From a virus (taxonomy: Duplodnaviria > Caudoviricetes), in IMG/VR virus record IMGVR_UViG_3300029288_005873, positions 320,001-384,000 of that record: a DNA stretch of 64,000 nucleotides. One strand, given 5' to 3'. Numbering within the stretch: position 1 is the stretch's first letter; each line of letters starts with the position of its first letter. Shown in pieces: positions 1 through 60,857 of this stretch. The notes beneath the pieces are model-generated. The model saw only the letters and a program-made list of their open reading frames with translations, had not been told where the DNA came from and made no database searches. The translations under genes and the position numbers were made by a program.

Positions 1-3000
1 TACTAAGGTCAATGAAATATCTTCGCGCAGGATCATTATAAGTATCCATTATAGGATTTGCCCAAAATTCTATAGTTCCAGAATTATTGAAGAAAATACC
101 TTTATTATCTAAAGCCATTGAACTGGCTTTGTCAAATACAGCTGATTGTCCAAATAAACTATTGACACTACTCGAACTCTGAAAATATGATTGCGAAAAA
201 CCAGCATAAAATCCAGCCTTATTTTCTAGGCAACCGTTGAAATGATACAAAGCAAGAGATTGCGTGGTCGGTACAAGTTCACGTACACTGTTTGCTTCAG
301 AGGTTATACTTATTCCAGAACTTGGAAGCACTTCGCCAATCCCGGTGTCTGTTAGCATTTCCCCAAGTATATGCATCTCATCAATTACCGCAGAGGCTTG
401 ATTGGCTCCATTCATGTCTGAACCTACATATAAAGTCTCTGGAATCTCGTCGAATAGAATTACAGCATAGCTTGGGAAGTCGACCTCATACCAGCAATTG
501 CCCAACAGAAAAGGAAGACCGCCGCTATTGGCTATCTCCAATGTTATCAATCCATTAGCAAAACCAGAATCCGAAAACGATAGGTTAAGCATTTGCCATT
601 TCAAACCCGAATAAGATCCAGACACTGCCGTACCAGACAGAATTACTGTATCAGAATCCTTAACAATACCAGAAGGATCAAGCGGTACATCTGTTATAAC
701 AAACACTTGTCCAGAGCCAGAAGGCAAAGGAGTCTCAATATATATGAGTTTATTGATATCTTCCGCTCCAAAGCGCGAATATCCATCAGAGAATGTTTTT
801 GTACTTCCAATCTGAAGAATCCCGTCAGAACCAGCCTGCTCTACGACTGAAAGCCTGATTTGGGCATAATCACCGCCATTTTCGGATTGTGTGATAGGAG
901 AAGCTTCACGTATCTCAATAGCACCAGCTGATTTTGTAATATCCAATGGTGTAAAAGCTGCTGATATACTTGTTATTGATGTAAAGAATTGTGTAGTAGT
1001 TTGTGTTCCAACCTGTGCAAATGTAAGAGTTTCTGCTCCAGACGATACAGATGTCCCATTACTGACGTCACCAGTGATGATGACCTGATTTAAACCGCTG
1101 AAATCAAAATTATCACCAGTGATATTCACAGAAAACCTTCGACCCGTAGCCAAATTGCTTGGTTGACAGAATGGTAAGTTTGAAACAAGTGCTTGAACAG
1201 CGTGTCCTCCAACAACAGTTGCTATCAAGGCAAAAGAGCCAGCTTCTATATTAATACGCCTGGTTATTATATTCGTAATCCTGATTTTCGAAACAGCTGT
1301 TGGCTGCGGCATTATTGTTTTAATCAGGTTTGTTCTTCTATATGGCCAAATATATGCAAGTTGTTTACTACGTTGCTGAGTTAAACCATAAGAATACAAT
1401 ACAACATCATACCCTATTGGAACACCATTATTTACAACAACATAATCTTGGTAGCCATCGCGCAAAAAAGAATAATCTGGATCAAGGGCATTAGGAGAAC
1501 GCAGCTCAGTTTCAACACCAGTAGGAGAAACAGAATATACCCTTACCTTCTCTATTAATGGATCTGAAACAGTTTCTAGAACAAGTCTATTTACAGAATA
1601 TTTAACATCAGTCAATGTTGAAATGGCATAATATGGTAAACCCCCACACTCAAGTCTTAGTGTGTTTTCATCAACAACCTCTGAAACAAGGACATATGGA
1701 GGAACAACTGTGCGCGTATTTGTTCCATCTGCTGTATTGTCCAATATTGTGAACCTATCCCCAGGCACAATTCCGTCTGTAACAAATGTCGCTCCAGACG
1801 AACGAAAAATGTCTGAACCAGAAAAGGTTACCATGTCTTGTCCGCCGACAGTGGCTGAATAAGCATCTGCTAGAAGTATCTCTCCAGCAGTATCCATATA
1901 TTTAACACCACCAGTAGATGGAACGGGAAGGTATCCAGCAAACCTATATGTGTTTGGCACTTCACGTCCATCGACAAAAAGATGTAGTTCATCGCGCTGT
2001 TCGACAGTTCCTACTTTCCATGATACTGCGACTGCATGCGTGTCTCCAGCTTCCCAGTCACGAATATTTGTACTTATTGTTTTAAGTCTACCATTATGGT
2101 CGTTAACCTTGTAGCGAAGGAATCCGTGTCCATCTTTAAACAAGGACATACGGTCAATATTCTCAGAAACTCCAGTATCGAAGACAAAGTGTACATTGTC
2201 GGACTGAAAGTCTATACCGTCAAAAGCTGCCCAAGTTCCACTTCCATATGCGTCAAATGGAAGATTTACGATGTCCCACCCATCAACCGTAAATGAAAAC
2301 TCAACCAAGGAATCGGTAGACCTGATAAAATCATTGATTTCATCCCCGCCGTAGCCGTCTGCGGGCGCAATTCCATCAACCGAAGAAGCCACCTCTACCT
2401 CTGAGAATTGTCCTGTTGATGTAATCTGTCCATCAAAGAGTCGAGCTTCATCAATTGGAGCTCTTACGCGCAAACGCCATTTTTTTGCCGTGCTGTCGTA
2501 CCAAATAAAATATCCATTTTCACTGTGTAAAGTTAAAGGTCTCCCTAAAACCAATGGATCGGTGCGATCTAAGGTGAACGGTATATCTTCTGGATTGTAG
2601 GAACTAGAGCCTACAAATACTTTGGATGGCATCCTATATCCATCAAAAAGGATGTCGAATGTTAGAGATGCATCATTATCTATTCCAGACCAAAGAGGAG
2701 TAAGTTGACATTCCCATGTCCCTTCGGAAAAGCGCATATTCGATGTAGCTGGAAGTGTAGCAGTTTGTCCAGAACTATCCAAAAGAATGCCATCTCCAAA
2801 TTTGCCTGGAGCAAATGCGGGGTCAAATGAAACACCAGGAGTTCCTTCGGCTACCATTGGAATAAGGTTAAGATAGTCACGCCCAAGTATCCATTCAAAA
2901 AATACAGATTCTTCGATTGTTGGATCAATTGATGTAAATGCGCTCACCAGTCTTTTAATAGCTGGAATGGTTGGACCTTGTAGAAAAGATTGAAGAGATC

Positions 3001-5962
3001 CAACTAAGGCTGCGCGGTATATTTCCCTATTAAGGTTTAATGGGGCTGTCGATAGTTCATCTATACCAGTAAGTACACCAAAATTGTCCCTCAACGAGTT
3101 ACGTAATGCGCCGTATCTATAACTTACATAATATGTAGATCCTTCAGAAAGCGTATCGGATATGCTCCAATCAAGAACATTGTCCCCATATTCATAGCTG
3201 ACAAGGATTTCGTCTGCCAAATATGTGTAATCTATGAAAATATCTCCAGGAGTATAGTCTACAATAACTGCTGCCCCAGGAACCAAAGCAGCCCTATATC
3301 GCGCTTCAACCATTGATCCTATGGCACTATCAGGTGTTCCAGTTGGTAAGTATATACGATTGGAGTTGGCATCGATATAGCCATCCGATCCAAGAGCAAA
3401 TAGATTTGCCCCAGTTATCATATCAATAATCCAATATTCTCGTAAAAGAAAAGATGGATCAGCTGGTTTATTAACCATAAAGGCAAGCTGAGTTATCCCT
3501 GACACTATTCCAGAAAGTCTAGTAACCTCCACAAATTTCCTGGATCCATCAGACTGGACCTCAAGTCCTAAGCCGCTTCCAATATCAACTACTGGAACTC
3601 CGTCCTGATCCATTACAATAGTTGTTGGCTGGGATGACGATATTGAAGATCCCGATACAAAATCAACTGGGCTATCAGAGGTACGCAGATCAGTAACTTG
3701 GAAAATATGTCTAACACGCAAAGCATTTTTCGATACAGTTACCGTATTTCCAGCCGAACCATTTGTAACAAGTATTGGATCTCCATCAACATCTGACTCT
3801 CCCACATGTTCTAGATCACTAATTCCAACCGTATCATCTCCAATAGAACCTATTGAAAAAGTTTTTATGTTATCAGATTTTGTGCTCGCACTCCTATATA
3901 TATTTGATACTTCTGTAATATGTCCATTGTATGTCTTTACAGTTCCAAAACGGTATGATGCGTCTCCTATGTCCGTATCACTTCCAGAAAGTACAGCCAC
4001 GTAAGCTATGCCATTTACATAATCGACCATAAAGTCTCCTACCCCTTGGAGACGCTGAAGGTTTTCATCCTCTGTTCCGCTTGGGTCGAAGTACATTTCA
4101 CGTACAAAAGTCGAAGTATCAGAAAATGTCAAAGAAGAGTTAAAACTAGCCCCTATGTAGTCACCCGTTGCAGCTGCTATGTCTGCATCCTGGAGTTCAA
4201 CCTTAAATGCAACAAAGGCTTTAGAAGGAATGGTTATCTCATCAGATACAACAATTTGAGCTTGTGTATGTTCGTCAAATGTGGCAGCTTCCCTTATTAC
4301 GGAAAAAAGCCTTGGCGGTTGTGAGGACTCAAAAAAGACCTGATTCCCCGAAATCCTGGATACATTATAGAGTTCTCCCGTGGTCTCATTAAAGATGCGA
4401 AAAACCTCATTTACGGGACCATGAAGAGTCCTGAGCCCAAAATTGCCTATTAACCTATTATCAATACGTTCATCTATACTTTCGACATGCGAGGAGAACG
4501 CAAAATCTGTGCCCTCAGCAAAAGCTTCTTCATATTCAAAAGATATAGTAGCAGCTTCTCCATCCAAATCCCGCCCCGGTACTACTGCTATCTCCCACAA
4601 ATCACTGGAGAAATTGTAGTCAAGTCCATCCTGAAATGTGCGAAGAAAATAGTATGTAGCAACTGGTGGCACAACTGTTGTTCCGTCTGTACCAGTACCA
4701 TCAACACCAAAAACTATAACCTGACCAGTGCTGTAGTTGACCGCAAACTCACCAGGGCTGGTCGGCAAACTGGATTCACTAAATGGTATTTCAACCAAAA
4801 AGGCTGGATGTTTTGTAGATGGATCGAAATTAACTGCTGGATTCAGCCATATTATTCCTCCAGATGTCACAGTATTGCCAAGCTGATCGACAATAGGCGC
4901 ATGGTTCAAAAAGAAAGATGTTGCAACAGCCGGAACACTTTCTCTTGGCACTAATACAACAGATGTTATAACCACTGTTGACGCATCAGGAGAAATACCA
5001 AGTTTTTTGTATATATATCCAACTTCTATGGTATCGTTACCCTGTGGCATCGGAAAAGTTGGTCCAACTGCCGCAGTACTTAGACGTATCTGATTAACAT
5101 CAATATCAAGTGCTGGATAAGCATTTTGACTATCATATTTGCTTTCAGATATTCCATACCTATATGTGCTTATATCATATGTATATCTGTTCGTACCTCT
5201 AACAAGCACTATTGAAGATACCGATATAACTGGGCTTTTAGAAACAGATATGAGCAAACCATCAAAACCGTTACCACTTCCAGATGTATTTGACACAATC
5301 TCACTTGATACAGAAGTTTGCTGTAGACTTACTGGGTCTAGTGGAAATTGATCATACTGTATTGATCCGTCCAAATTAGCATTTGTGGTTGAGGCTCCAG
5401 CACGCAGTAGCTTAAACACCCCCTCATTGGCAAATCTGTCATATGGACCAGAACCTCGGACAATTTCTTCATCTACTACATCTATGGAAACGTAATTCGC
5501 AGCTCCGACTTCATTGGCAGAATGTTTTGCGTCCTCTATTTCATCTGCTGTTGGCATAATAAGATTACGCAACAGTGATCCTGAAGATGGGTCATATATA
5601 GATGGCAACGAATCGGTCATGGATTTGAAAGTGTCGCTTTCCTCCTCCATGCCTACAAAAAATAGATGATTAGTAGCGCCGTCTTCAACAAGCCTTTCCC
5701 CATGAGCACCTTGGAAAGGCTGACTGTCAGTCGACCCCAAAACCATCTCATACAAGGAACCTGATACCATTGGCTGAGTATAAACGGTCATATTCCATTT
5801 GGATATGGACACCGATTTAACGTCAATACCAGAAGTAGTTCCTCCAGCTCCATTTATGACAATATTGGCTACACCAATATTCTGGTCAAGGCTAGCCGTA
5901 AAAGTTAGCTCGATGGAGGAGCTGGTCAAAACTGTCAGTTTTGTGGCGCGCAGATTAGCCAT
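1..5962 (-). CDS. Very large baseplate/tail-associated protein with LamG (ConA-like) domains, >1980 aa, truncated at the left window edge
   Basis: Absent from the ORF track, presumably because no stop falls in the window. ATG at 5962 reads MANLRATKLTVLTSSSIELTF. Spot checks at 1451, 1859, 2246, 2351, 2636 and 3377 and the first ~25 codons of the window are all in the same open frame. The left end reads NSGTIEFWANPIMDTYNDPARRYFIDLS (LamG-like). Lies directly downstream of baseplate J. Confidence 0.8.
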   Translation of the reverse strand, partial: MANLRATKLTVLTSSSIELTFTASLDQNIGVANIVINGAGGTTSGIDVKSVSISKWNMTVYTQPMVSGSLYEMVLGSTDSQPFQGAHGERLVEDGATNHLFFVGMEEESDTFKSMTDSLPSIYDPSSGSLLRNLIMPTADEIEDAKHSANEVGAANYVSIDVVDEEIVRGSGPYDRFANEGVFKLLRAGASTTNANLDGSIQYDQFPLDPVSLQQTSVSSEIVSNTSGSGNGFDGLLISVSKSPVISVSSIVLVRGTNRYTYDISTYRYGISESKYDSQNAYPALDIDVNQIRLSTAAVGPTFPMPQGNDTIEVGYIYKKLGISPDASTVVITSVVLVPRESVPAVATSFFLNHAPIVDQLGNTVTSGGIIWLNPAVNFDPSTKHPAFLVEIPFSESSLPTSPGEFAVNYSTGQVIVFGVDGTGTDGTTVVPPVATYYFLRTFQDGLDYNFSSDLWEIAVVPGRDLDGEAATISFEYEEAFAEGTDFAFSSHVESIDERIDNRLIGNFGLRTLHGPVNEVFRIFNETTGELYNVSRISGNQVFFESSQPPRLFSVIREAATFDEHTQAQIVVSDEITIPSKAFVAFKVELQDADIAAATGDYIGASFNSSLTFSDTSTFVREMYFDPSGTEDENLQRLQGVGDFMVDYVNGIAYVAVLSGSDTDIGDASYRFGTVKTYNGHITEVSNIYRSASTKSDNIKTFSIGSIGDDTVGISDLEHVGESDVDGDPILVTNGSAGNTVTVSKNALRVRHIFQVTDLRTSDSPVDFVSGSSISSSQPTTIVMDQDGVPVVDIGSGLGLEVQSDGSRKFVEVTRLSGIVSGITQLAFMVNKPADPSFLLREYWIIDMITGANLFALGSDGYIDANSNRIYLPTGTPDSAIGSMVEARYRAALVPGAAVIVDYTPGDIFIDYTYLADEILVSYEYGDNVLDWSISDTLSEGSTYYVSYRYGALRNSLRDNFGVLTGIDELSTAPLNLNREIYRAALVGSLQSFLQGPTIPAIKRLVSAFTSIDPTIEESVFFEWILGRDYLNLIPMVAEGTPGVSFDPAFAPGKFGDGILLDSSGQTATLPATSNMRFSEGTWECQLTPLWSGIDNDASLTFDILFDGYRMPSKVFVGSSSYNPEDIPFTLDRTDPLVLGRPLTLHSENGYFIWYDSTAKKWRLRVRAPIDEARLFDGQITSTGQFSEVEVASSVDGIAPADGYGGDEINDFIRSTDSLVEFSFTVDGWDIVNLPFDAYGSGTWAAFDGIDFQSDNVHFVFDTGVSENIDRMSLFKDGHGFLRYKVNDHNGRLKTISTNIRDWEAGDTHAVAVSWKVGTVEQRDELHLFVDGREVPNTYRFAGYLPVPSTGGVKYMDTAGEILLADAYSATVGGQDMVTFSGSDIFRSSGATFVTDGIVPGDRFTILDNTADGTNTRTVVPPYVLVSEVVDENTLRLECGGLPYYAISTLTDVKYSVNRLVLETVSDPLIEKVRVYSVSPTGVETELRSPNALDPDYSFLRDGYQDYVVVNNGVPIGYDVVLYSYGLTQQRSKQLAYIWPYRRTNLIKTIMPQPTAVSKIRITNIITRRINIEAGSFALIATVVGGHAVQALVSNLPFCQPSNLATGRRFSVNITGDNFDFSGLNQVIITGDVSNGTSVSSGAETLTFAQVGTQTTTQFFTSITSISAAFTPLDITKSAGAIEIREASPITQSENGGDYAQIRLSVVEQAGSDGILQIGSTKTFSDGYSRFGAEDINKLIYIETPLPSGSGQVFVITDVPLDPSGIVKDSDTVILSGTAVSGSYSGLKWQMLNLSFSDSGFANGLITLEIANSGGLPFLLGNCWYEVDFPSYAVILFDEIPETLYVGSDMNGANQASAVIDEMHILGEMLTDTGIGEVLPSSGISITSEANSVRELVPTTQSLALYHFNGCLENKAGFYAGFSQSYFQSSSSVNSLFGQSAVFDKASSMALDNKGIFFNNSGTIEFWANPIMDTYNDPARRYFIDLS

Positions 5963-5979
5963 TTTTCAACCCCATGTGT

Positions 5980-8900
5980 TCAGCGGGTCTTTACCGTCAC
6001 GTTTATATCGCCTGCCGCAAGATATTCATTCTTCTTGGCAGAGATGGTTGTTACCGTTCCAGACAGACCTTGTTTGTTGAAATGTGTTATCGTAATTTTA
6101 TCCAAACCAGCAACGCTATGTGCGGCAGTTGACACATCATCTACATCCAATGTCGTTCCAAGAGCTGTTGCATTCAGGCTAGATGATATGTTGTTTGCTA
6201 CATCTTGTTTAACGGATGAAGATGATGTTTCATAAGCTGGAAGTACAATTATGTCAGCTGTCACATCAATAGGTACTTTGGTAGAAGCTTTTACAAGAAC
6301 ATCCGCAGTTATTGGTCTTCCACTCTCTACAGAATTTGTAGCATCACCTATAAGCTTATTATATTCGTAGTTTATTGTTATCCTTTCGTTGTTTTTTGGA
6401 GCCGTATAGCTATAATCTACTGAATACGAGGCATTCTGGTCTGGTTGTGTAACTGTATCAATGGACATTCTGCCGCTTACAGCTCCAGCCGAATTCGTAA
6501 ATCCAGATATCCTACCTATGGAAGTTACTTTTGCAAAAACCTTGTCCGTAATTTGTGAACCGTTTTTGGAGAAAAACAGTCTTTCACTATCGTTCTGTTT
6601 CGTATAGTAAAATGTGGCCCTTATGTGTGTTCCAGTAGTTATTGGTTCCGAAGTATTCGCAGTCACCGAAGCAAGCTGTACGGAGGCGTTTCCTAGTGCT
6701 GTATTCTGTACAGCATGAGCTAGATCCCATCGCGAAGTTTTCAGCCCATAATTCGTAAGGTCATATGTTGTCAAAATACCAGAAATACTTCCAGAAATTG
6801 ATAAGGATACTTTTTCAATTGAAGCAACCCTACTAATCGTTATACTTGATGGTATAGACGCCGTTCTTCCAAGACCCTCTGCCGTACGTATTAGAGGAGC
6901 AAGATCAATAATATTCGAACTGCCAGTACTTGCCGAGGTGGTGGTAAATACACCAGTTACAGCTACCATAGTTGTTCCAACTACTTCAATGGTACCTTGG
7001 GTCGGAATTGCCGTAAGGCTGACCTTAAGATGAGCTGGAGTTCGACGCATATTATCCAACACAGAACTGCCAGAGAAAAGGTCAAGAAAGGGCTGATACC
7101 CATCAACATCTGAAAAAGAGTTATACCCATCTCCAGACACCGGCAAAGATATTATGTTCGTCTGAGGAAGTACGTTTGGTAAATTTGTAACATAGCTTAC
7201 CAAAAGATTTGTTCCCGAGGCAACCATGTTGGATGGAAAAAGAGTTATTGTCCTACCAACTGCCGAACATGATTGGTACGAATCCACAAGGTCTGTTAGA
7301 CTATATGTGGCATTTATGCTATCCCCTAATGATGCCAAAGTATCACTTGGAAGAACAATTAGCTTATTTGAGAATGTACCATCTGCCTCCAAGGTATTAT
7401 ATACTTCTGATCCGTTTTTTGTACTATCTTTCATACTATGTATATTACTTACCACATTTGATGTTATAACTGTTCTCCTAGATGATGTTCCAGATACTAG
7501 TAGTGTCTCATTATAGAATGTATTAACAGACAAAATTCGGCTTATTGGATATGACACTGTTACAGTTAAATTGCCATAGGAATCCAATATAGCCGTGGAC
7601 ATCTCATCCCTGATGTAGTTAGAAAATCCCCAGTCAACAGAATCTTGGGCTTCATCAGCAACATCCCTTGGGTCAAACGTATCAAATTCAACTTGCGGTA
7701 CAAAAGACATAACCCAAGTGTAATCAACCTGAAGTATGTCACTAGCTGTAGGAAGAGTTCGTCCGGATATCTGTATGCGCCCAGTGGTATTCAGACTTCC
7801 ACTTTCACCATCTGGATTCTGATTAGATATTGTATACCTCTCTCCAGTTGTAAGATTAAATACCCTGCTAACCGTACGTACAGGCTTATGCTTTGTGGTT
7901 ACGTATGAACGATCACTTGATACGGTTGAGTTTTCATTTGTGACGCGCACATCCTGAGAGATTGCCGAAACATTTAATACATCTGAAAATGAAAGCCCAT
8001 CTACGCTATTGAATGCGCCTTTTGTGCGATTTTCTCCTTGAAGGTCTATCTGTCCATTGGTCCATACGAGCTTATCCAATCCAAATGGACTTCCTGCTGC
8101 CGAACCTGTATCTTTTACAAGTTTATAGTTTCCAGCAAGTTCACCAAGATCATTGGTATATTGTTCAACAAAATTTGGTCCAGATGAACTTCCAGACACA
8201 GAAGTAATAGCGGACACTGGCTGTGTGGGCATCTGTTCTCCATCAGTGAGAACGGCTAGACGCCTACTATTAAGAGACAAACTTGCATCTGGTGTTAGAG
8301 AACTTTGCCCGAGCACATAGTCATTTTCTGGGTCAGAGGGATCATTTTTACCACTTTTATCTTTGTATATGAAACTATCAGTACCCTCCTGTAGATTTTC
8401 TCCAAACACATATATATCAACTTTTCCTCCAGTTCCTGGTTCTGCTACAATTACGTTTCCACTACTGTCTGTTGTAGTTACCGTACCATCCCTAGTCATT
8501 AGGGGGTCACCAGGTTCCACTACTAGTGCATCAATAGCATCAGCCAAAGATAGAATAATTCCCCTGTATCCAAGAGCTGTTCCAGTATTAGCGCCAGCAA
8601 AAGTCGAAAGAATGCGCGATCTGAAAGCCGCATCGGTCTCTAGGTCAGCCCCTCCAGTAAAAGACACCACATTAGTAACGCCATTTACACCAGGGGCAGT
8701 ATGAGATACAACAGAATATGTTGCTATATTTCCGCCAGATCCAACACTTTGTGCTTGTACGGACACTTCTATTGCATATTGGTCAGTTATTCCAGCGGTA
8801 TCTAGTTCATTTCGCAATCTTGTAGCTGTTGCTCTAAGAGCATTTGCGTCTGAAGGCTTAACCGTCACACTAGATATTGTCGAAAATGTTATACCATTTC

Positions 8901-9234
8901 TAGTACTTACGACAGTACCAGATGATATGGTTGTAGTTGTATCAATTGTTCGAAATGTAAACACAACCTGTCCACTAGCTCTTGTTCCCGTTTTTCGGCT
9001 AGCCCCAAAATTTGCACCATAGTTGGTGAGATCATTACCAGACAAGTTTGCCAATGCCTGTAATCTGGCAATATTTCTCATTGTTTCATATACATCTCCA
9101 AGCTCGAAAGCTGGAGGATCGACAAACACATCTCTTGCAACAGAGTTTGGTTTTGTATCCAATTGCGGCTGCGTCAAACGCAGACGTTCGAGTATAGAAA
9201 GCACTACTTCATTGAAACTTTTGAACCTTGTCAT
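5980..9234 (-). CDS. Baseplate J-like wedge protein (1084 aa) with large internal insertions
   Basis: N-terminal RKTGTRASGQVVFTF, VQAQSVGSGGNIA and FTGGADLETDAAFRSRI are typical baseplate-J motifs. The C-terminus VKQDVANNI...LGTTLDVDDV...VAGLDKI matches the J C-terminal domain. Follows a gp25-like gene. Confidence 0.85.
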   Translation of the reverse strand: MTRFKSFNEVVLSILERLRLTQPQLDTKPNSVARDVFVDPPAFELGDVYETMRNIARLQALANLSGNDLTNYGANFGASRKTGTRASGQVVFTFRTIDTTTTISSGTVVSTRNGITFSTISSVTVKPSDANALRATATRLRNELDTAGITDQYAIEVSVQAQSVGSGGNIATYSVVSHTAPGVNGVTNVVSFTGGADLETDAAFRSRILSTFAGANTGTALGYRGIILSLADAIDALVVEPGDPLMTRDGTVTTTDSSGNVIVAEPGTGGKVDIYVFGENLQEGTDSFIYKDKSGKNDPSDPENDYVLGQSSLTPDASLSLNSRRLAVLTDGEQMPTQPVSAITSVSGSSSGPNFVEQYTNDLGELAGNYKLVKDTGSAAGSPFGLDKLVWTNGQIDLQGENRTKGAFNSVDGLSFSDVLNVSAISQDVRVTNENSTVSSDRSYVTTKHKPVRTVSRVFNLTTGERYTISNQNPDGESGSLNTTGRIQISGRTLPTASDILQVDYTWVMSFVPQVEFDTFDPRDVADEAQDSVDWGFSNYIRDEMSTAILDSYGNLTVTVSYPISRILSVNTFYNETLLVSGTSSRRTVITSNVVSNIHSMKDSTKNGSEVYNTLEADGTFSNKLIVLPSDTLASLGDSINATYSLTDLVDSYQSCSAVGRTITLFPSNMVASGTNLLVSYVTNLPNVLPQTNIISLPVSGDGYNSFSDVDGYQPFLDLFSGSSVLDNMRRTPAHLKVSLTAIPTQGTIEVVGTTMVAVTGVFTTTSASTGSSNIIDLAPLIRTAEGLGRTASIPSSITISRVASIEKVSLSISGSISGILTTYDLTNYGLKTSRWDLAHAVQNTALGNASVQLASVTANTSEPITTGTHIRATFYYTKQNDSERLFFSKNGSQITDKVFAKVTSIGRISGFTNSAGAVSGRMSIDTVTQPDQNASYSVDYSYTAPKNNERITINYEYNKLIGDATNSVESGRPITADVLVKASTKVPIDVTADIIVLPAYETSSSSVKQDVANNISSSLNATALGTTLDVDDVSTAAHSVAGLDKITITHFNKQGLSGTVTTISAKKNEYLAAGDINVTVKTR

Positions 9235-11266: not shown

Positions 11267-13360
11267 TTATCTCACTCCACTGTTTGAACCAACTGCCCCA
11301 AGAGGCTCCCTGGAATCCTGTGGCGCTGCGTCGGCAGGCTTGATGTCCGTAAAAACCAATGTCAATTTACGAGTCACATAATCAGGGGGACTAATAGACG
11401 TATCAAAGTCACTAATATATTGATCAGCCACAGTTGCCGTAACTTCTGCTGCCCCTGTTATTTTGCTCGTAAGCGTTGCCCTGAATTCCCCAGTTGATGC
11501 CCCATAAGCATCCATGACCTCTACAACCGAGGAAATTGTCCCAAATGTTGAGAAGGCCTTAACATCAACCACACCGGGTGGAAGATCGTCTGCAAGACGA
11601 TTTCCATTTATATCGATTGGGATGATGCTAATAACAATGTCCCCACCCGCTGTCTGAAAATATCTATTTGCTGATAGCAAAGATTTATCCCGACTAAGTA
11701 CACGAGGATAGATTTGTTCAGCATATAAAACTACGTCGTTTGCCAATGTCCCTAGAACATTTGACACACAGACACCAGCTGTAGCAGCGCCTTGTGCAAT
11801 ACTACCATAGTTGTCTATGATATATTGTGTATCAGCATCTATTGGCGCTATTGCTGTTATACATGCCATTGCAGCAGTAGCTGCTCCACTTATATCTGGA
11901 AGTTCTGGTATTGGAATGTCAAGGTAAGGGCTTCTGTTTTTAGCACCCCTTACTGCCGCCTTGACATCTGGATGACATCCCACACCAATCATATTGTGGC
12001 GCAAAAGTTCTTCATGATTTATACCAAGAACATATGAGAGCCCAGAGCCACTTGATGGAGCAGCAATTTTGCGCCATACCATTTTAGATCCTGGACCAGA
12101 AGCTGGATTATAAAGCCCAGATGCTAGCCAGGAGTTTGCTGTTAAATGGTCGATTTTTACATTGTATGCGTCATACGCAGATATAATTTGAAAAGTTCCA
12201 GAATTCTTGACAGCTCCAGTGCTGTCAGAATCCATTATTTCAAGCCACATGCCGTCATATCCATCACTACTGGAAAACTGTGGAGTCCTTGTTCCAAACC
12301 GGGCATATCGTCCAGGATTGAGATCATCTACATTTGCGGCACCATTCGAAGATCTGTATATACTTGATAGATAACCATCACTATGTTGCCTATCAGGTAT
12401 CCTCATAATATCAAGTGTTCCGTTTTCGCTTTCGTCCCCAGACACGATAACTGATGTAACAGCATAGTATCCATCACAATATAGATAATAAGGAATTTTC
12501 CTGTAATCTGTCACAGAGGCATAATCTATCCCATCTGGGAAAAACGAGGAGAGCGCAAGAAAATCCTCTTTATGAACTGCTGAAGCAAAACGCAGAAAAT
12601 AGCTTAAACTACTTCCCCCAAACATTGGCGTAACCGTCAAAACGCCGTCGGAGCCATTTAACGTGAAATTCTCAAACACCTCTGGACACTGGTCGTCTCC
12701 ACAACCTCCGCAAGATCCTCCACTCCCTCCACAAGGAATGCCTATACCAAGACCCAAAAGCGCCTTTACCATAGCTAAAATTGCATCAAGAGCAGCCATG
12801 ATGCCAACAACATTCATAAGTTCCCTTAAAAGGGAGACAATTTTGAATGCTACGGCGTTGACAGCTTGCTGATTTCCAGTCGACATAGCATCAATGAGAT
12901 CCTGGATATTTGATATAATATCCTGGATAAGAGGAATTATAACCGTTATAACATATGTTACAATTGCTAGAATGATCTTTATTAGGCACAATATCATTGC
13001 CGGTATTGCTAGCTGAGGCAGTATAAGTATAAAATCAGGTATACACGATCCGAATAAACGTATAACGGCAGCAATTAAAGAAAATGGATTAGTAAGAGCG
13101 CATATAACATCAATAATACAGGTCACCAGCTTCATAACCACTGTCAACATGCTATATCCAGCAGCAAAAGCAGAAAGAAGTTTAGCCTGGTCGGCGATTA
13201 TATCGCCCATATTGAATCCCGTTATTGGTTGGATACTCGGCTTTATTATAGCACCAGCTGGACATGTACATGACATAGAGCGCACAAGCTCAGGATATGT
13301 CTTGTCAATACCGCCATTGGTTGGCAAGGGAAACAGTGTTCTAATGCTTGGTGACGTCAT
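11267..13360 (-). CDS. Baseplate-region protein with a hydrophobic Cys-rich helical N-terminus and an Ig-like C-terminus
   Basis: 697 aa ORF. About 150 aa of apolar helices, then CGGSGGSCGGCGDDQC. C-terminal TGEFRATLTSKITGAAEVTATV resembles a bacterial Ig-like (invasin) strand pattern. Confidence 0.7.
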   Translation of the reverse strand: MTSPSIRTLFPLPTNGGIDKTYPELVRSMSCTCPAGAIIKPSIQPITGFNMGDIIADQAKLLSAFAAGYSMLTVVMKLVTCIIDVICALTNPFSLIAAVIRLFGSCIPDFILILPQLAIPAMILCLIKIILAIVTYVITVIIPLIQDIISNIQDLIDAMSTGNQQAVNAVAFKIVSLLRELMNVVGIMAALDAILAMVKALLGLGIGIPCGGSGGSCGGCGDDQCPEVFENFTLNGSDGVLTVTPMFGGSSLSYFLRFASAVHKEDFLALSSFFPDGIDYASVTDYRKIPYYLYCDGYYAVTSVIVSGDESENGTLDIMRIPDRQHSDGYLSSIYRSSNGAANVDDLNPGRYARFGTRTPQFSSSDGYDGMWLEIMDSDSTGAVKNSGTFQIISAYDAYNVKIDHLTANSWLASGLYNPASGPGSKMVWRKIAAPSSGSGLSYVLGINHEELLRHNMIGVGCHPDVKAAVRGAKNRSPYLDIPIPELPDISGAATAAMACITAIAPIDADTQYIIDNYGSIAQGAATAGVCVSNVLGTLANDVVLYAEQIYPRVLSRDKSLLSANRYFQTAGGDIVISIIPIDINGNRLADDLPPGVVDVKAFSTFGTISSVVEVMDAYGASTGEFRATLTSKITGAAEVTATVADQYISDFDTSISPPDYVTRKLTLVFTDIKPADAAPQDSREPLGAVGSNSGVR

Positions 13361-38224: not shown

Positions 38225-38233
38225 TTCTATCTC

Positions 38234-49875: not shown

Positions 49876-50151
49876 TTATTTCCATGCTTCAACTCGAACA
49901 ATTCCATATCCGTCAAGGGCGCGGAACCACACTTTACATTCACAGCGTCCATCAAACGCCAAACCAATCGATGAATCGTTAGGATTCATATCTCCATGAA
50001 GTCTCAACCCATCAAATGAATATTGGATCACATGACCACTGCGATTAAGAAAAGTAAAGGATTGTGGATTAAGACCAAAATTGGCCTGTGGTATAGGTGG
50101 GAAGGAATATCCATCCACTGTAATTGTATTGAAATAGTTGAATTTACTCAT
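49876..50151 (-). CDS. Small beta-rich virion (decoration-like) protein
   Basis: IQYSFDG...KVWFR...VRVEAW; first gene after a late-type motif; two DGY. Confidence 0.6.
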   Translation of the reverse strand: MSKFNYFNTITVDGYSFPPIPQANFGLNPQSFTFLNRSGHVIQYSFDGLRLHGDMNPNDSSIGLAFDGRCECKVWFRALDGYGIVRVEAWK

Positions 50152-50308: not shown

Positions 50309-51679
50309 CTACCAAACAGGTTTGGAAAAAATCAAGGCGATCTCAACATTTCTACGACGAGTTAGGTGGGTGGGAGTATTGGATAGATCATGCTGCTCAA
50401 GGTGTAAAAGACCAATAGAGTCAGCCAGGCGCAAACAGGGCTCCACATTGTCACGATCAAAAATCACTATGGCTTTTCCACCACGTTTCAACGAATTATA
50501 AATACGACCCATGAGGGTCCTAATGAATCTTTCCTCCCATTCTGCTTTGGATCGGTATCTAAAGCTAGCTTGATTTGGAAGGTTACAATACGTTTCTTTG
50601 TCGAAATAAGGTGGACAGGTTAAAACAAGATCTGCAAACTCACCCTCTACATTAGCATCCTCCATAGCAATCGGTTCCACTGAAGTGCGATTTTTAATAC
50701 CCAAAACATCTGACAATTCCATAAGTTCAGAACAAGTGACTGTATTTGGTTCACATGCAACATAGCGACCATCTGGACAAGCTGCTGCAAACCCCAATAA
50801 CCTTCCGCCAAAACCAGCGCAAGGATCCCAAACTACAGAATCCTTGGCTCCATACTTTAACAACAACCATTTGGTAAGCAAAGGTTTGAAAAGTGATACT
50901 ACTTGCTTATTGACCTCAAGTCCTCGCCTAATCTGTTTGAATGAAATATCAAACAATTCTTGGCATGCCACTTCATTATTATTAAATATATATTTATAGT
51001 CTTTACTATTTCCTAAACCAAAACGATATGAAACAACCATATCTGCTATTCGATTGTTGTTAAACGCATAAATAGGTGGATCGGATCGTCCAACCGAAGC
51101 GCACCACATGCTCTTAAACCATCCTTTGATTTCTGCCATTCCTACAATACTTGAAGTGTTTAATGTGCCATCAGTCGACTCCATTTTATATAGTAAATCA
51201 CGTATTTCATCAGACGACGGTTTCGGAGGATAAATCCATCCAGACAAAGAAATATGCCTACGTAGGAAATCTATAAATGGAACAACGAGACTAGCATGGG
51301 CGGTTTTTTTCAAATTGCGCTCGTAATGATGCTTCCAGATCTCTTCCCTAGAGAAGAAAACGTGGTTGTCGGAATATGTTTTGTTAGCATCCAAAGTTTT
51401 CCAACCAACAAGAAATTCATTTGGATTATTGTTCAATTGCTGTTTGAAACCCGCTTTTGTGTCCGATTTTGGTCTTCCTGTTCTCTTTCCCTCCGAAAGA
51501 CCAGAATATTCTAAGGCTTTTTTCCAAGACCCAAATAGGCGTACACAGGTGGTTGAGCTTGGAGTATACGGATCGTTGTCAGCATCGCGTTTGCCCAGCT
51601 CGGTCCGCCCGAGCCTTTTGGCAAGTTTTTTTAAGGCTGCTGCGGCTGATATCTTATCATATTCTTGAGTTCTGCTCAT
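50309..51679 (-). CDS. Amino (N6A/N4C) DNA methyltransferase fused to a homing-endonuclease-associated repeat
   Basis: VWDPCAGFGGRLLG (SAM binding) and LVLTCPPYF (catalytic); N-terminal PSSTTCVRLFGSWKKALEYSGL repeat. Confidence 0.8.
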   Translation of the reverse strand: MSRTQEYDKISAAAALKKLAKRLGRTELGKRDADNDPYTPSSTTCVRLFGSWKKALEYSGLSEGKRTGRPKSDTKAGFKQQLNNNPNEFLVGWKTLDANKTYSDNHVFFSREEIWKHHYERNLKKTAHASLVVPFIDFLRRHISLSGWIYPPKPSSDEIRDLLYKMESTDGTLNTSSIVGMAEIKGWFKSMWCASVGRSDPPIYAFNNNRIADMVVSYRFGLGNSKDYKYIFNNNEVACQELFDISFKQIRRGLEVNKQVVSLFKPLLTKWLLLKYGAKDSVVWDPCAGFGGRLLGFAAACPDGRYVACEPNTVTCSELMELSDVLGIKNRTSVEPIAMEDANVEGEFADLVLTCPPYFDKETYCNLPNQASFRYRSKAEWEERFIRTLMGRIYNSLKRGGKAIVIFDRDNVEPCLRLADSIGLLHLEQHDLSNTPTHLTRRRNVEIALIFSKPVW

Positions 51680-52656
51680 CGGTTATCCTCTTTATTCTGT
51701 TTTGCCTCTAATACTATCTTTTTGGCAGCATTCCATGATCCAAAAAGACGAATGGCGGTTACGGAACTAAACTCTCCCTGCCTATCGAAACAGGAACGGG
51801 AAATGTTGGTATTAGTTCCCATACAATTTTCAACAGCTTGGATTATTTGCTCTTTTGATATTCTTTGTCGTTTTGGTACAATTTTCCATTTGTGCTCATA
51901 ACCAGATACTGGGCAAGGTCCTATCCATTCCAAAAAAGCAGGCGCAACCAATCTTGACATGCGGATAATATTATATCCTCCACTATGATTATTCCTAGCG
52001 GATCGAAATCCAAGTTCTGTCAACAGTCTTGCTAATTTCTCTACTTCCCCTTTTGTAAACCCACAAGTTGAAAACTTAACAGTATTCTGTTCAATATAGC
52101 CATCTCCCAAATACCAATGTAAACATCGCGTTCTATTCAAAAAAATATTGGCTGGAATGACTTTAATACTTTGGGGATACCAAAGTTTTCTCAACTCTCC
52201 AAAAGTGATATTTGATGAGCTTCGAACTCTTTTCTGTGGTTTGCCTTTGTTCCTAGCGGGTAGAAACTCTTCGTTTTTCAAAGGCACACCGCAATTATAA
52301 AGTGATTGTCTCAGAAAATCCGAATAGAACCAATTCGCTGTAGAATGAGCAAAACAACCAGATTGTTCTATACTTCCATCACCAAGTAATTCTCCTTCAA
52401 TTATATCCAATGCTTTTTTGCTCAATAATATTGGTGGATCATGCGGTCTACCTGTTATAATACCAGCCTCTAGTTTGGCAGCAGATAAAGCTTTACTCCA
52501 TGATCCAAAATATCGTTTAAAAGTGACTGATCCAGGCATGTCTGGATCTTTATCTATCATTGATTTCGATAAATTCCTAGAGCCAACTTTATCAGAAAAA
52601 GCCAATAATTTTTCCACTAATTCCTTTTGGGTAAATTTTTTCATATGCCCTCCCAT
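51676..52656 (-). CDS. LAGLIDADG endonuclease flanked by two homing-endonuclease-associated repeats
   Basis: IEGELLGDGSI and LHWYLGDGYI...FSTCGFT; FKRYFGSWSKAL and AIRLFGSWNAA repeats. Confidence 0.85.
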   Translation of the reverse strand: MGGHMKKFTQKELVEKLLAFSDKVGSRNLSKSMIDKDPDMPGSVTFKRYFGSWSKALSAAKLEAGIITGRPHDPPILLSKKALDIIEGELLGDGSIEQSGCFAHSTANWFYSDFLRQSLYNCGVPLKNEEFLPARNKGKPQKRVRSSSNITFGELRKLWYPQSIKVIPANIFLNRTRCLHWYLGDGYIEQNTVKFSTCGFTKGEVEKLARLLTELGFRSARNNHSGGYNIIRMSRLVAPAFLEWIGPCPVSGYEHKWKIVPKRQRISKEQIIQAVENCMGTNTNISRSCFDRQGEFSSVTAIRLFGSWNAAKKIVLEAKQNKEDNR

Positions 52657-53795: not shown

Positions 53796-53841
53796 TTGTC
53801 CTTCTCCTCCTATTGGATGTCTTTCTCTCCTTTCTTCCTAA

Positions 53842-53914: not shown

Positions 53915-53925
53915 GAAAGTTTTCA

Positions 53926-54579
53926 CTACTCGACGAAGTAGGAGATCACAGCATGCTCCCAAGCGGTCGCGGCGCCAACAAGCGAGGCTGGCGTACGGAC
54001 GAGGGAACGGGCAGTGGACTCGAACTCCACGAAGCGAGCGACAACTGGACCAGCGGCATCAACGGAACGGGCCTGGGTCGGAGTGAGAACGCCTAGGATG
54101 GTCGGGTAGATTCTGGACTGCGGAACCAGCGATGTGTTACTGGGGAGCAGACCGAGAGATACGCTGGTGTCAACAGCATCAAGAGTGACGCCATAAAGAC
54201 CAGGCTTATCCCAAGCAGTCACCTTTCCAGAACCAGAGGCAGTGTGAGGTCCAAGGTTTGTTCCTGTGGTCGAGAGACCAGCGGGAATTCCAATCACCTG
54301 ACCAAACAGGGTGCCGTATCCCGAAGTACCATCGTCGGTAAGCCACAGTGGACGAGCAGTAGAAACTGCAACGTTCAGCGTAAGACCAACACGCATACTC
54401 TGGGTGTAATTGGTGTATCCATCGAGCACATCGGCCGCAGCCTTCTCAGTAGCGGTATTGGTGCGCGAAAGAGCAACCAGGGTACAGATCTCTCCGCCCT
54501 TGACGCTAGAGAGATATCCGTCCTCGAAATCGAACTGACCAAGCGGCTGAATGCCGGGGTTAAGGATCTTGAGAGCCAT
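53926..54579 (-). CDS. Capsid decoration/cement protein 1 (~217 aa)
   Basis: Start reassigned to ATG 54579 (AGGAGA SD, MALKILNPG); immediately upstream of the MCP with the same codon bias; HTASGSGKVTAW..PGLY. Confidence 0.65.
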   Translation of the reverse strand: MALKILNPGIQPLGQFDFEDGYLSSVKGGEICTLVALSRTNTATEKAAADVLDGYTNYTQSMRVGLTLNVAVSTARPLWLTDDGTSGYGTLFGQVIGIPAGLSTTGTNLGPHTASGSGKVTAWDKPGLYGVTLDAVDTSVSLGLLPSNTSLVPQSRIYPTILGVLTPTQARSVDAAGPVVARFVEFESTARSLVRTPASLVGAATAWEHAVISYFVE

Positions 54580-54663
54580 TTTTTTTTGTCTCCTATTGCC
54601 GCTGGAGGTTACTCCTCCTGCGGAAGTTGTCTTTGTCCTGGCCCTATGGGCCTTGTCAATAGT

Positions 54664-54681
54664 ATGCGAAACTATTGATAG
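54664..54681 (-). promoter_or_regulatory. Putative phage late promoter CTATCAAT-N6-GCAT for decoration protein + MCP
   Basis: CTATCAAT AGTTTC GCAT in the true intergenic gap 54580-54728. Confidence 0.7.
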
Positions 54682-54728
54682 TTTTTCATGAAAAAAATCG
54701 GTGCTTTGCGCTACTGCCAAAAAATCCT

Positions 54729-56006
54729 TTATTGCCAACCCTTTGGAGCCACGCGATCGGCAACTGCCAATAAGCGACGTAGATTATCAGGTTCCATTAC
54801 AGTGCCGTCTGGACGCAATATTGAACCATTGATATCCCAACCACGACGACCAATGATCTCGGCAGTCTCTGGATTTCCGCTAAAAACTGCGTCGAGCTTA
54901 TCTTCAAGACGACGGATTGCGTTCATGGTAGCAGTATCTAGTTTTCCACTATGTAAAGTACCAAAACCACGTTCAGATAGAAGCTCCTGAATTTCCGTTA
55001 TGCGATCGGGTCCAGGAAGTTCCTGCTTTACAGCCTGCGGCTTTTTTGCCTGGAATTTAGCCATTGCTTTATTAGCCACATTCGACAAAGCGTTTATGGA
55101 AAGTCTGGTATCCTCAAAAGTTTTTTTGAGGTCTGAAAATTTTTCATTCAGTCTAGACTTTGCTCCAAGCCCAAGTTTATACCATTCTTCAGGCATTGCA
55201 ACCATAGCCTCGACAATCGTAGAGGCTTGAGTCATGTCTGTTTCAAAGTTATCAAGCGCTGTACTGTATTTAGCAAGCCCAGCCTTATCATCTGGAAGCG
55301 GCATCGGTTGCCTAAATTTTGCAATATACGGTCCAAGGATTGATTGTAACTTATTCGCAAGACCAGCAAGCTCAGGTTTTTCGCCTACAGATGAAGCTGT
55401 ATCTAAAACATCCTGTATGTCGGTGGCAAGACCTTCACGCACGCTTGTAAGCTTTGACCCAAACCAATTCCATGCCCCAACGCCAAGTCCTCCCCACATC
55501 AGTAGCTTGGCTACAGGGGCTAATAGTGAAAGGAATGCCTCCTTATGGAGGCTATCGACGAAAGGGAAGGAAGCTAGCCTCTCAATGGTCAAATCGACCC
55601 TTGCCGCAGCTTCTGCCTTGCCTTCGCCTTCTAGATCATTTGCTAGCGAAACTAGGATCTCAACAAGGCTAGCATGTTTTCCAGTAAGCGCACCGGTCGG
55701 CATACATGTAGCAATCTCGATATCCTTATCCTGCTGTTGAACTATATTCTCGACAAGTGCTCCATCGCCCATAGATTCAGCTGGTTTAGCATCCTTTGGA
55801 TGCGCCTTACCAACAAGATCCTCGCCCGTCTCTTTAGTAACATTGTATTCTTTTCCAGGTTCATACCGTCTATGGTCCTTTACGGGCGTCTCCTTGTCGG
55901 TGTTTCCGACAACGGGTTTGCCGAGGTCCGAGACGATAAGGCCGCTTTCGGCGGCGATCTTGGCGAACTCGTCCATCACCAGGCTGCCGTTCCATTCTCT
56001 GCTCAT
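54729..56006 (-). CDS. Putative internal head/ejection protein with modular propeptide and a C-terminal peptidoglycan-binding-like domain
   Basis: Shared motifs A, B and C; hydrophobic segment after LHKEA; ITEIQELLSERGF...SGKLDTATMNAIRRLE. Confidence 0.55.
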   Translation of the reverse strand: MSREWNGSLVMDEFAKIAAESGLIVSDLGKPVVGNTDKETPVKDHRRYEPGKEYNVTKETGEDLVGKAHPKDAKPAESMGDGALVENIVQQQDKDIEIATCMPTGALTGKHASLVEILVSLANDLEGEGKAEAAARVDLTIERLASFPFVDSLHKEAFLSLLAPVAKLLMWGGLGVGAWNWFGSKLTSVREGLATDIQDVLDTASSVGEKPELAGLANKLQSILGPYIAKFRQPMPLPDDKAGLAKYSTALDNFETDMTQASTIVEAMVAMPEEWYKLGLGAKSRLNEKFSDLKKTFEDTRLSINALSNVANKAMAKFQAKKPQAVKQELPGPDRITEIQELLSERGFGTLHSGKLDTATMNAIRRLEDKLDAVFSGNPETAEIIGRRGWDINGSILRPDGTVMEPDNLRRLLAVADRVAPKGWQ

Positions 56007-57013: not shown

Positions 57014-57015
57014 GG

Positions 57016-59802: not shown

Positions 59803-59803
59803 C

Positions 59804-60136: not shown

Positions 60137-60161
60137 CGAAATCCTCCTAGAATAATAACAT

Positions 60162-60857
60162 TTACAACCAAAGAAACTCAAGAGTACCAATAAGTGCAGA
60201 AGGTGGGGCTGTAACAAGTCCTATAGCAGGGTGGTTTGGTGTAGCCTGCTTTGTAGTCAACTTGCCCTCCTCGTTCACAAAAAGAGCCGCATTGAGCGGA
60301 TATTTCTGCGTTGAGTCATACTGGTCGGTAGCATATATGCCGCGAGTAATCCATATTGTTATTCTGTTGCTCCCGACAGTTGTGTCCTCGCCAGGTAGAT
60401 TTGGAACCCTATATACGTAACTTACAACAGTTTTGATACTATCAGGTCTTCCGTCTCCATCTGAATCGTAGTTGAGTACACTTCCAGCTGGAGCCATAAG
60501 TACACCATTAACAGGATTCAAAACAAGATTTTCATAGTCAGCGACAAAGCTTGATGCAACCACATCGGCAAAGCGTAATTCCTGTTTAACATCAGTCGTA
60601 CTTACCCAACGTCCATAGGCATCAAGAATTCCTGTAGCTGGAATGACCACAATTTCATCAGGCGATGGTTTTGTAAACGCCGTAGTTCTAGCGTCATCTA
60701 TAATACCAAAAGGTGTTGTCCCATCAGAAAGTCCAGCAACAATATCCTGACCAAACAGCGTGAGCTGAGCAATACAGCCAGGCTCGAACACCGATGAGGA
60801 GTCGACTGGATAAGACACTGGCAGCGCATTGCCTATCTGTATCAGCTGCAGAACCAT
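60162..60857 (-). CDS. Capsid decoration/cement protein 2, paralogue of 53926..54579
   Basis: DTTVGSNRITIWITRGIY...LFVNEEGKLT versus HTASGSGKVTAWDKPGLY...IYPTILGVLT; similar N-terminus and GIIDD/WLTDD. Confidence 0.55.
   Translation of the reverse strand: MVLQLIQIGNALPVSYPVDSSSVFEPGCIAQLTLFGQDIVAGLSDGTTPFGIIDDARTTAFTKPSPDEIVVIPATGILDAYGRWVSTTDVKQELRFADVVASSFVADYENLVLNPVNGVLMAPAGSVLNYDSDGDGRPDSIKTVVSYVYRVPNLPGEDTTVGSNRITIWITRGIYATDQYDSTQKYPLNAALFVNEEGKLTTKQATPNHPAIGLVTAPPSALIGTLEFLWL

Follow-up and report, generated by a model that had tools for sequence, protein, structure and literature searches.

In mycobacteriophages, virion proteins are glycosylated by phage-encoded glycosyltransferases (GTs), with the glycans reportedly attached to the C-terminal ends of capsid and tail-tube subunits (PMC12619734). 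Tyrosine O-glycosylation is known from the S-layers found on Gram-positive bacteria, such as Paenibacillus alvei (SpaA) and Thermoanaerobacter, for which no sequon is reported in the review; there, a lipid carrier holds the growing glycan, which a membrane O-oligosaccharyltransferase transfers during secretion (PMC2943079). Here we describe a tripeptide, Asp-Gly-Tyr (DGY), that recurs in outer virion proteins of an uncultured tailed phage (Caudoviricetes; IMG/VR record IMGVR_UViG_3300029288_005873), together with a neighboring glycan-synthesis gene cluster. The window analyzed encompasses 64,000 nucleotides (bases 320,001-384,000) of this 441,904-bp single-contig virus, denoted G000 below; its relatives are numbered G001-G038. 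The original prediction, derived from the letters of the window, had proposed that DGY is a recognition site for modification or docking on virion surfaces.

Two further systems are relevant as background. Glycogenin, a member of family GT8, glucosylates tyrosine, and other GT8 enzymes act on cytoplasmic proteins, namely Gat1 on Skp1 and GlyE on the pneumococcal serine-rich adhesin. In the Chlorella virus PBCV-1, cytoplasmic virus-encoded transferases glycosylate the capsid at atypical sequons. A literature search for a DGY motif found no paper describing one in the library covered, and the matches for tyrosine glycosylation combined with bacteriophage concern toxin effectors.

Excess of DGY in the virion module

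All long open reading frames (ORFs) of the window lie on the minus strand and together form a virion module. The excess of DGY in the outer virion proteins encoded there is confirmed as real and far beyond chance. Counted in frame, DGY is present 30 times, spread over 12 minus-strand ORFs (Table 1); 29 copies are in 11 virion-type ORFs and one is in a LAGLIDADG homing endonuclease, where the tripeptide is part of the LAGLIDADG motif of the family itself and lies outside the virion tag. The original prediction had counted 28 DGY in 11 structural ORFs and one in a nuclease; the number of ORFs and the nuclease site were correct, but the true structural count is 29, the left-edge ORF having five DGY and not four. 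The composition of the individual proteins yields an expectation of 3.07 (Poisson P = 8e-20), in agreement with the earlier rough estimate of 3-4 for the window. In 2000 per-protein shuffles, the mean is 3.1 DGY and the maximum is 10, and a dipeptide-aware (Markov-1) null gives 5.6 (P = 5e-13). When tandem runs are collapsed, 25 sites remain (P = 5e-15, or 4e-11 after Bonferroni correction by 8000). Among the 8000 tripeptides, DGY ranks first in the window, with the runner-up at P = 1.5e-5, and in the carrier proteins overall it is enriched about 16 fold. The strong excess over chance that had been claimed from a manual count is therefore borne out under each of these nulls.

The claim that selection acts at the protein level holds as well: the tripeptide is found 30 times in frame, compared with 4 times in another sense frame and twice in antisense, and the window copies are encoded by ten different 9-mers. 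An origin as a DNA-level motif or codon artefact was rejected on these grounds. The commonest coding form of DGY is GATGGATAT, in the relatives too; among all DGY codons of the genome (e.g., window positions 30990-30998 and 40307-40375), the glycine is encoded by GGA in 61% of the cases compared to 39% for other glycines of the same genes (chi-square P = 0.001). In this genome, motif spacings of 26-33 residues are mildly overrepresented (9 vs 3.4), a trend that is not clear in the relatives. The reported lack of DGY in the major capsid protein (MCP), tubes, tape measure and other inner proteins is accurate as a count, but an exclusion from inner proteins carries no statistical weight: the 35 DGY-free ORFs of the window, including MCP, tube and tape measure, have 0 against 1.22 expected (P(0) = 0.29, not significant).

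The related form D-[A/S]-Y is found 17 times in the window (10 DAY vs 2.9 expected and 7 DSY vs 3.2), with a glycine next in 11 of the 17. An enrichment of D[AS]YG by 7-9 fold is seen in G000, G001, G002 and G024, and none in G029, G033, G036 or T4. We read D[AS]YG as a probable relaxed form of the tag that is set on an existing hairpin. Pooling it with DGY, as in the original prediction, is warranted only in part. The D-x-x-G-N hairpin represents a structural turn that is conserved, and only its tyrosine follows the on/off pattern of the lineages described below.

Extent across the genome, relatives and outgroups

In the whole genome, 72 DGY are present vs 17.3 expected, and the excess is confined to 260-280 and 300-380 kb, that is, to fibre, tail, neck and head-surface genes; at 100-180 kb there is none. 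Several DGY in non-virion genes (genome 93715-95847 and 13584-16719) are parts of recognized family motifs. These include LAGLIDADG/intein-like blocks as well as the C-terminal region of a C5-type DNA methyltransferase paralogue (genome 13584-14597; …DGYKMVGNAVP…).

Bacillus phage G is the closest cultured relative (MCP 52% identical), and the capsid family has 432 relatives in IMG/VR. The related phages, to which the original prediction pointed for comparison, display the same excess: 106 DGY vs 14.4 expected in G001 (sheath 82% identical), 42 vs 6.6 in G002, 75 vs 7.4 in G029, and 71 vs 8.0 in the first 120 kb of G024. Over whole genomes, DGY is enriched 7-10 fold, with P values as low as 1e-54, and five relatives reproduce the excess; in G001 and G002, DGY is again the top tripeptide. 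In G024, 57 of the 71 DGY reside in a single 3634-aa protein (G024:C1:1490-12394). This protein has tandem Ig-like repeats of ~115 aa, every one of which includes DGY pairs at a distance of 23 aa, contains the run DGYIDGYVDVDGYIDGYFVPDGY, and is homologous to a 420-aa protein with 8 DGY that is encoded at genome 270471-271733 of G000. Another DGY-rich fibre of G000, 942 aa in length (genome 316180-319008), contains a Dockerin_1-type calcium-binding repeat (residues 599-670, E = 1.4e-8).

The outgroups differ. In T4, 17 DGY are present vs 8 expected, with the paralogous Seg GIY-YIG motif accounting for 6 of them. The count for phage G is 33 vs 21 and includes a local cluster that comes from a repeated DGYWYVRG module; in the giant fibre ORFs at 316.8-343.4 kb of this phage (JN638751), the module reads ...(N/R)(H/N)(T/P)DGYWYVRG... 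and is a paralogous repeat, not a dispersed tag. At the DNA level, phiKZ shows a slight DGY excess over control (53 vs 40) and LR745208 shows none (58 vs 72). No dispersed DGY excess is found in phage G, Rctr197k or LR745208, which are outgroups without a glycan cluster. Rctr197k, with 22 vs 7 at the DNA level and no GT genes, was considered as a counter-example and rejected, given that the protein-level count is 5 vs 5.8; the DNA-level excess is misleading because the reversed-pattern control fails at 63% GC.

Exactness and context of the motif

The enrichment is specific to the exact tripeptide. In every DGY-rich genome, the variants DGF, DGW, DGH, NGY, EGY and SGY as well as all permutations (YGD, GDY and DYG among them) occur at expectation. 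At 306 isolated sites, the residues before the Asp are mildly biased toward hydrophobic ones, and those after the Tyr lack amphipathic or strand periodicity. Known short structural motifs are nearly absent: no DGY site fits Asp-box patterns, 2 of 366 fit [DN]x[DN]xDGY, and L-x-P-G-x-Y is found 0-4 times per genome. In close orthologues, the sites are conserved more often than the background would predict (38 of 57 vs 17, and 18 of 29 vs 6).

In agreement with the earlier statement that the carriers are mostly non-homologous, which was borne out at the BLAST/phmmer level, at least 60 of the 72 genomic site windows have no similar partner in an all-against-all comparison. Paralogy or a shared mobile domain was rejected as the source of the motif, given that similar partners exist for 12 of 72 windows and iterated hidden Markov model (HMM) searches with the sheath insertion domain cover 2 of 72 sites.

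Gain and loss of sites across lineages

Syntenic orthologues were compared across contigs. In G036, which extends from the head genes through the tape measure, DGY is at expectation (4 vs 4.2): the neck protein has 2, the sheath 1, and the two fibre orthologues (1910 and 1192 aa) none. G029, in contrast, has more DGY in nearly every orthologue (neck 10, fibre 6, sheath 3), and G033, the sister of G036, has an excess only in two giant distal fibres, beside its GT4 gene. At the aligned positions, the low-DGY lineage has SGD, TGI, NGS, EGS, TDY or DSF; in the DGY-rich lineages, many sites lie within loop insertions. Thus, the motif load rises and falls in concert over unrelated proteins, by lineage. 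The ancestral location of DGY appears to be in the distal fibres, the host-contacting parts of the virion (G033, G007 and G008).

The sheath was analyzed with 114 full-length homologues and a tree. The number of DGY per protein is bimodal, and a clade at about 50% identity has none. At sites 68, 146 and 428, DGY is present in 64, 80 and 42 of the 114 homologues, respectively, and unrelated triplets in the others, with at least 13, 2 and 19 state changes on the tree. At site 428, the residues that replace Tyr are V, S, E, A, T, Q and I, never Phe, which implies an unconstrained position at which Tyr has been repeatedly selected. Sites 174 and 198 are D-x-Y-G hairpins that are conserved in the family, with a variable middle residue (DSY and DGY in this phage); low-DGY lineages retain the D-x-x-G-N turn there and lose the Tyr. 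In the AlphaFold2 (AF2) model of the sheath (predicted local distance difference test score, pLDDT, 82.8), the sites are in coil or at the first strand residue, at loop-to-strand junctions. The core of the model matches the phi812 sheath (VIA Z 31.6, root-mean-square deviation 2.6 A over 309 residues) and the pyocin and CD1363 sheaths (Z 27). Only ~310 of the 842 residues align to solved cores, which places the sites within the ~520 aa of add-on domains; in solved sheaths, the extra domains face outward.

A glycan-synthesis cluster between fibre genes

The original prediction had assumed a modifying enzyme encoded elsewhere. Candidate enzymes are instead found in a complete, 19-kb glycan-synthesis cluster at genome 294.6-313.2 kb, 7-25 kb outside the window and between fibre genes. 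DGY-rich fibre genes flank it on both sides, directly adjacent at 313.5-326 kb and about 20 kb beyond at 270-275 kb. The sugar genes of the cluster encode a sugar-1-phosphate nucleotidyltransferase, a GDP-mannose 4,6-dehydratase, an epimerase/reductase and a DegT-type aminotransferase, so that the nucleotide-sugar synthesis is of the GDP-6-deoxy/amino-sugar type; two methyltransferases and GT2, GT47-like and GT4 transferases are also present. The GT4 module is located directly after the distal DGY-rich fibres in 8 of the 8 contigs that reach this point, down to 38% sheath identity. It is much better conserved than the fibres: in the G029 group, its best 120 homologues, a list filled by close relatives, are at least 66% identical, compared with about 30% for the fibres between lineages.

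Two adjacent paralogues of the cluster that lack annotation belong, by fold, to the GT8-type GT-A enzymes. Foldseek places their model (pLDDT 95.5) with Gat1, glycogenin and LgtC (E about 1e-8), VIA aligns it with UGGT, glycogenin, LARGE1, LgtC, Gat1 and GlyE at Z 17.4-19.1, and both paralogues contain an invariant DxD (D102, D104); direct Pfam scoring is marginal (E = 0.19). Among the fold matches is also 2p6w (Z 14.9), the PBCV-1 A64R structure. The family has 96 members, only on contigs of this phage group, and the G020 copy contains an in-frame TGA. These genes are absent from the DGY-rich contigs with glycan clusters G002, G022, G024, G025, G026, G029, G031 and G032. As a general reader of DGY, the GT8-like enzymes were rejected because they are missing from most DGY-rich lineages; they are more likely chain extenders of this subclade.

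Neither Wzy_C (PF04932) nor Bac_transf (PF02397) was found in the 442-kb genome in searches that detected them in control genomes. With no Wzy_C-type transferase and no initiating phosphoglycosyltransferase, any protein glycosylation would be soluble and stepwise.

The proposed tag and the alternatives

An exact tripeptide with nearly free context whose abundance shifts in concert over unrelated proteins behaves like a recognized site, and it is likely that DGY is a tag read in trans. The part of the original prediction that saw a recognition site on surface loops is supported by these features together with the location in peripheral add-on domains; the tyrosine modification and the readers suggested along with it are candidate readings. 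Our favored reading, to which we assign a probability of roughly 0.45, is that DGY is a predicted sequon for tyrosine O-glycosylation by the phage's own soluble transferases. A clade of jumbo phages related to phage G would have accumulated DGY, with the relaxed form D-[A/S]-Y, hardly dependent on context, on loops and loop-to-strand junctions of outward-facing add-on domains in many unrelated virion proteins. A soluble phage-encoded GT, for which the GT4 encoded after the distal fibres is the candidate, would O-glycosylate the tyrosine of DGY in the cytoplasm, other transferases of the cluster might extend the sugar, and the outcome would be a sugar coat on the virion. The enrichment, its exactness, the concerted gain and loss, the add-on location and the gene neighborhood are observed; the GT reader, the Tyr acceptor and the coat are inferred. 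The full proposal, in which Asp-Gly-Tyr directs cytoplasmic tyrosine O-glycosylation on a dozen unrelated outer virion proteins and so produces a phage-made glycan coat, is tentative and slightly less probable than the sequon itself.

Several observations weigh against this proposal. Non-virion proteins show no shortage of DGY (about 11 vs 8 expected at genome 20-260 kb), and thus no sign of avoidance of the motif. The GT8-like genes are present only in the closest relatives, G001 (3 copies) and G020. Every low-DGY contig either lacks the tail region (G030, G034, G035 and G038) or ends at or before the cluster position (G033 and G036). None of them can serve as a natural knock-out of the cluster, and no informative relative combines the tail region with a demonstrable lack of the cluster. 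The association between GTs and DGY amounts to about one evolutionary event, in a single clade, and hence carries little independent weight. Furthermore, we know of no GT4 enzyme that uses tyrosine as an acceptor, and the cluster could build a glycan for another acceptor.

The tripeptide might also act without any reader, as an intrinsic turn and strand cap in which Asp-Gly forms the turn and Tyr is the first strand residue, stabilizing fast-evolving, beta-rich add-on domains. The loop-to-strand position of the sites in the sheath model fits such a role, and the same holds for the regular positions of DGY in the Ig-like repeats of the giant G024 protein, which include a canonical D-x-x-G-N hairpin, for the family-wide retention of D-x-Y-G at sheath positions 174 and 198, for the above-background conservation in close orthologues and for the weak general excess in T4 structural proteins. 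We nevertheless consider this unlikely. The orthologous domains of G033, G036 and the sheath clade at ~50% identity fold with unrelated residues at these positions, no conservative variant (NGY, DGF or DGW) is enriched, Tyr is not exchanged for Phe at the on/off sites, and the flanks are almost devoid of a structural signature. Loop insertions hold tandem runs such as DGYGPDGYRDGYDGY, which cannot all be hairpins, the load shifts in concert over unrelated folds, and the sites do not follow the Asp-box, tyrosine-corner or DxDxDG patterns. It is highly improbable that the excess is an artefact, whether from composition, codon usage, a DNA-level motif or paralogy. The GGA preference of the motif glycine and the modest excesses in T4 and phage G, which truly result from paralogy (Seg GIY-YIG and the DGYWYVRG repeats), would fit it, but the signal is confined to the reading frame with varied codons, survives shuffling, the Markov-1 null, collapsing of runs and Bonferroni correction, and recurs in five relatives, and the carriers are not paralogous.

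A reader in trans need not be an enzyme. DGY might be a binding motif, either for weak, RGD-like adhesion of the whole virion surface to a host or environmental ligand or for docking of a shared decoration or fibre protein; the exactness, free context, concerted gain and loss and outward-facing location point to such a reader just as they do to a transferase, multivalent tandem runs exist, and the apparent ancestral site is in host-contacting distal fibres. However, a tripeptide set in very different loops rarely makes a defined binding site alone, no candidate partner was identified, and binding leaves unexplained both the strictly conserved GT4 beside the DGY-rich fibres and the full glycan pathway within the structural module, so that we regard it as doubtful, about on a par with the structural role. 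Still less probable is a different chemistry of the tyrosine, such as sulfation, phosphorylation, nucleotidylation or oxidative Tyr-Tyr cross-linking, with an Asp-Gly succinimide reaction also conceivable. The motif strictly demands Tyr instead of Phe as well as a neighboring Asp, which is compatible with such reactions, and DSYGAP-like contexts are reminiscent of the cross-linkable repeats of resilin. On the other side, no modification machinery other than that for glycans stands out beside the carriers, although no genome search was aimed at enzymes of these other kinds, and known sulfation sites prefer Asp directly before Tyr, which counts against sulfation of DGY. Tyrosine O-glycosylation is the reading that we favor over these alternatives.

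Carrier proteins and neighboring genes

Profile searches support the sheath, Baseplate_J, the NosD-type beta-helix fibre, the MCP and the LAGLIDADG nuclease, whereas most other large ORFs have no family (Table 1). Of the gene names used previously, sheath, Baseplate_J, MCP and nuclease are thus upheld by profiles, and LamG, spike, neck, tail completion and decoration are guesses from position.

Table 1. Proteins that carry DGY in the window and related features mentioned in the text. Coordinates are window positions unless marked as genome positions.
Feature	Coordinates (strand)	Length (aa)	Family or assignment	DGY residues	D[AS]Y residues
Giant distal fibre/baseplate protein	2..5962 (-); whole gene genome 319039-325962; DGY DNA 3377-3385, 2636-2644, 2351-2359, 1451-1459, 779-787	C-terminal 1987 of 2307	No Pfam or PHROG family found	860, 1107, 1202, 1502, 1726 of window part	2 DAY
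Baseplate_J/wedge protein	5980..9234 (-)	1084	Baseplate_J (core residues 66-276)	702, 711	DSY 551, 651
Baseplate-region protein	11267..13360 (-)	697	No family	296, 328, 366	DAY 397, 617 (spacing of sites about 30-38 aa)
Protein earlier named spike	13370..15637 (-)	755	No family	628
Tail sheath	28671..31199 (-)	842	PHROG tail sheath	68, 146, 198	DSY 174
Putative tail terminator/completion protein	31865..32626 (-)	253	Directly before the sheath in transcription order	119 (VVDGYGN)
Fibre with NosD-type beta-helix	33114..37646 (-)	1510	Beta-helix at residues 1146-1251	482, 589, 701	DAY 153, 494
Mini-fibre	38234..38500 (-)	88	Homologous to N-terminus of 1510-aa fibre	10, 64
Virion structural protein earlier named neck	39419..41395 (-)	658	phrog_38102	5 in tandem run GDGYGPDGYRDGYDGYDVTGHDGY, residues 341-363 (DNA 40307-40375)	DSYG 29, 94, 100
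Protein without family	49876..50151 (-)	91	No family	13, 80
ORF next to the nuclease	50309-51679	456	Weak DNA methyltransferase-like match
LAGLIDADG homing endonuclease	51676..52656 (-)		phrog_11023, 1.4e-23	185 (WYLGDGY)
Putative head decoration protein	53926..54738 (-)	270	Adjoins MCP gene; position like phage G gp26	73, 106
GT8-like paralogue	genome 305803-306657		GT8-type GT-A fold
GT8-like paralogue	genome 306654-307496		GT8-type GT-A fold
GT4 module	genome 310902-313166	residues 1-392	Prime candidate initiating enzyme

The fate of the sites in orthologues varies among the carriers. Orthologues of the giant distal fibre in G001, G002, G024, G029 and G033 have 4-10 DGY. In the Baseplate_J protein, all motif sites are in the C-terminal extension past the J core; they are DGY in G001 and G002, and LGF/KNF/SNR and TEY/LGE/SSN in G029, G024 and G033. 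The triplets of G001 that align with the sites of the 697-aa protein are NGY/DGY/D--, and the best G033 match, a 2532-aa protein, has no DGY, with an alignment over only 149 aa. The single site of the 755-aa protein, which is DGA in G001 and DGT in G002, is compatible with chance. The putative tail terminator, a homologue of which adjoins the phage G sheath, has DGY in G001, G002 and G029 and TDY in G033 and G036. All three DGY sites of the 1510-aa fibre are kept in G001 and G002. The tandem run of the neck protein lies in an indel-rich loop, which has grown to 10 DGY in G029 and in which DGY is nearly gone in G033 and G036. Both sites of the 91-aa protein are kept in G002, and G029 has two paralogues with one DGY each. 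Finally, orthologues of the putative decoration protein have no DGY in G033 and one in G029.

Similarity of the mini-fibre to the 1510-aa fibre is confined to the N-terminus of the latter, and the reciprocal best matches of the mini-fibre in G001 and G002 are proteins of 1302 and 1352 aa. At window 37665-38500, the mini-fibre is followed by ORFs of 86 and 100 aa; a further long fibre gene of this phage may thus have undergone truncation or replacement. The LAGLIDADG ORF and the neighboring 456-aa ORF have in common an N-terminal stretch of 47 residues (49% identity), which suggests either a duplicated leader or a gene broken by insertion of a homing endonuclease, near the MCP gene.

Significance and comparison with known systems

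If the proposal is true, DGY would be a new, simple acceptor rule, a tripeptide for a Tyr-linked, cytoplasmic glycosylation that needs no lipid carrier. No phage is known to have a virion-wide sequon, and DGY would be the first. Large uncultured phages would then sugar-coat their entire outer surface, with a bearing on adsorption, shielding from recognition by hosts or grazers, and particle stability, and the tripeptide might serve as a portable tag for glyco-engineering. Even with another reader, a tripeptide that comes and goes in concert over unrelated proteins is an exceptionally clean entry point to a process at the level of the virion.

The mycobacteriophage system resembles the one proposed here in the location of phage-encoded GTs by structural genes (GT2, GT4, GT47-like and GT8-like between fibre genes in the present case) and in the proposed cytoplasmic glycosylation of structural proteins of a tailed phage, which would yield a sugar-coated particle. 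In contrast to the C-terminal sites in mycobacteriophages, the MCP and tube ORFs of this phage contain no DGY, and its candidate sites are dispersed over internal loops in peripheral proteins (fibres, baseplate periphery, outer sheath domains, neck and head decoration proteins). The S-layer case is similar in its stable O-glycosidic link between sugar and tyrosine on a self-assembling prokaryotic surface protein, a link that is only proposed for the phage. Unlike S-layer glycosylation, the phage system would dispense with a Wzy_C-type transferase and an initiating phosphoglycosyltransferase, and the virions assemble in the cytoplasm.

With glycogenin, Gat1 and GlyE, the cluster has in common the GT8-type GT-A fold and invariant DxD of two of its genes; unlike what is expected of a general reader, these genes are limited to the closest relatives. 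The proposed system is like that of PBCV-1 in having a host-independent viral machinery and a short, non-canonical sequon on virion protein, but there the link is to Asn (N-linked) on a single capsid protein of a eukaryotic virus, whereas here tyrosine on many phage proteins is the candidate. Lastly, some DGY and D[AS]Y sites are located at D-x-x-G-N hairpins and in this respect resemble the Asp-box, tyrosine corner, DxDxDG and Big_1-type hairpin motifs. Unlike those motifs, which are universal and determined by the fold, DGY is lineage-specific and is switched on and off at aligned positions.

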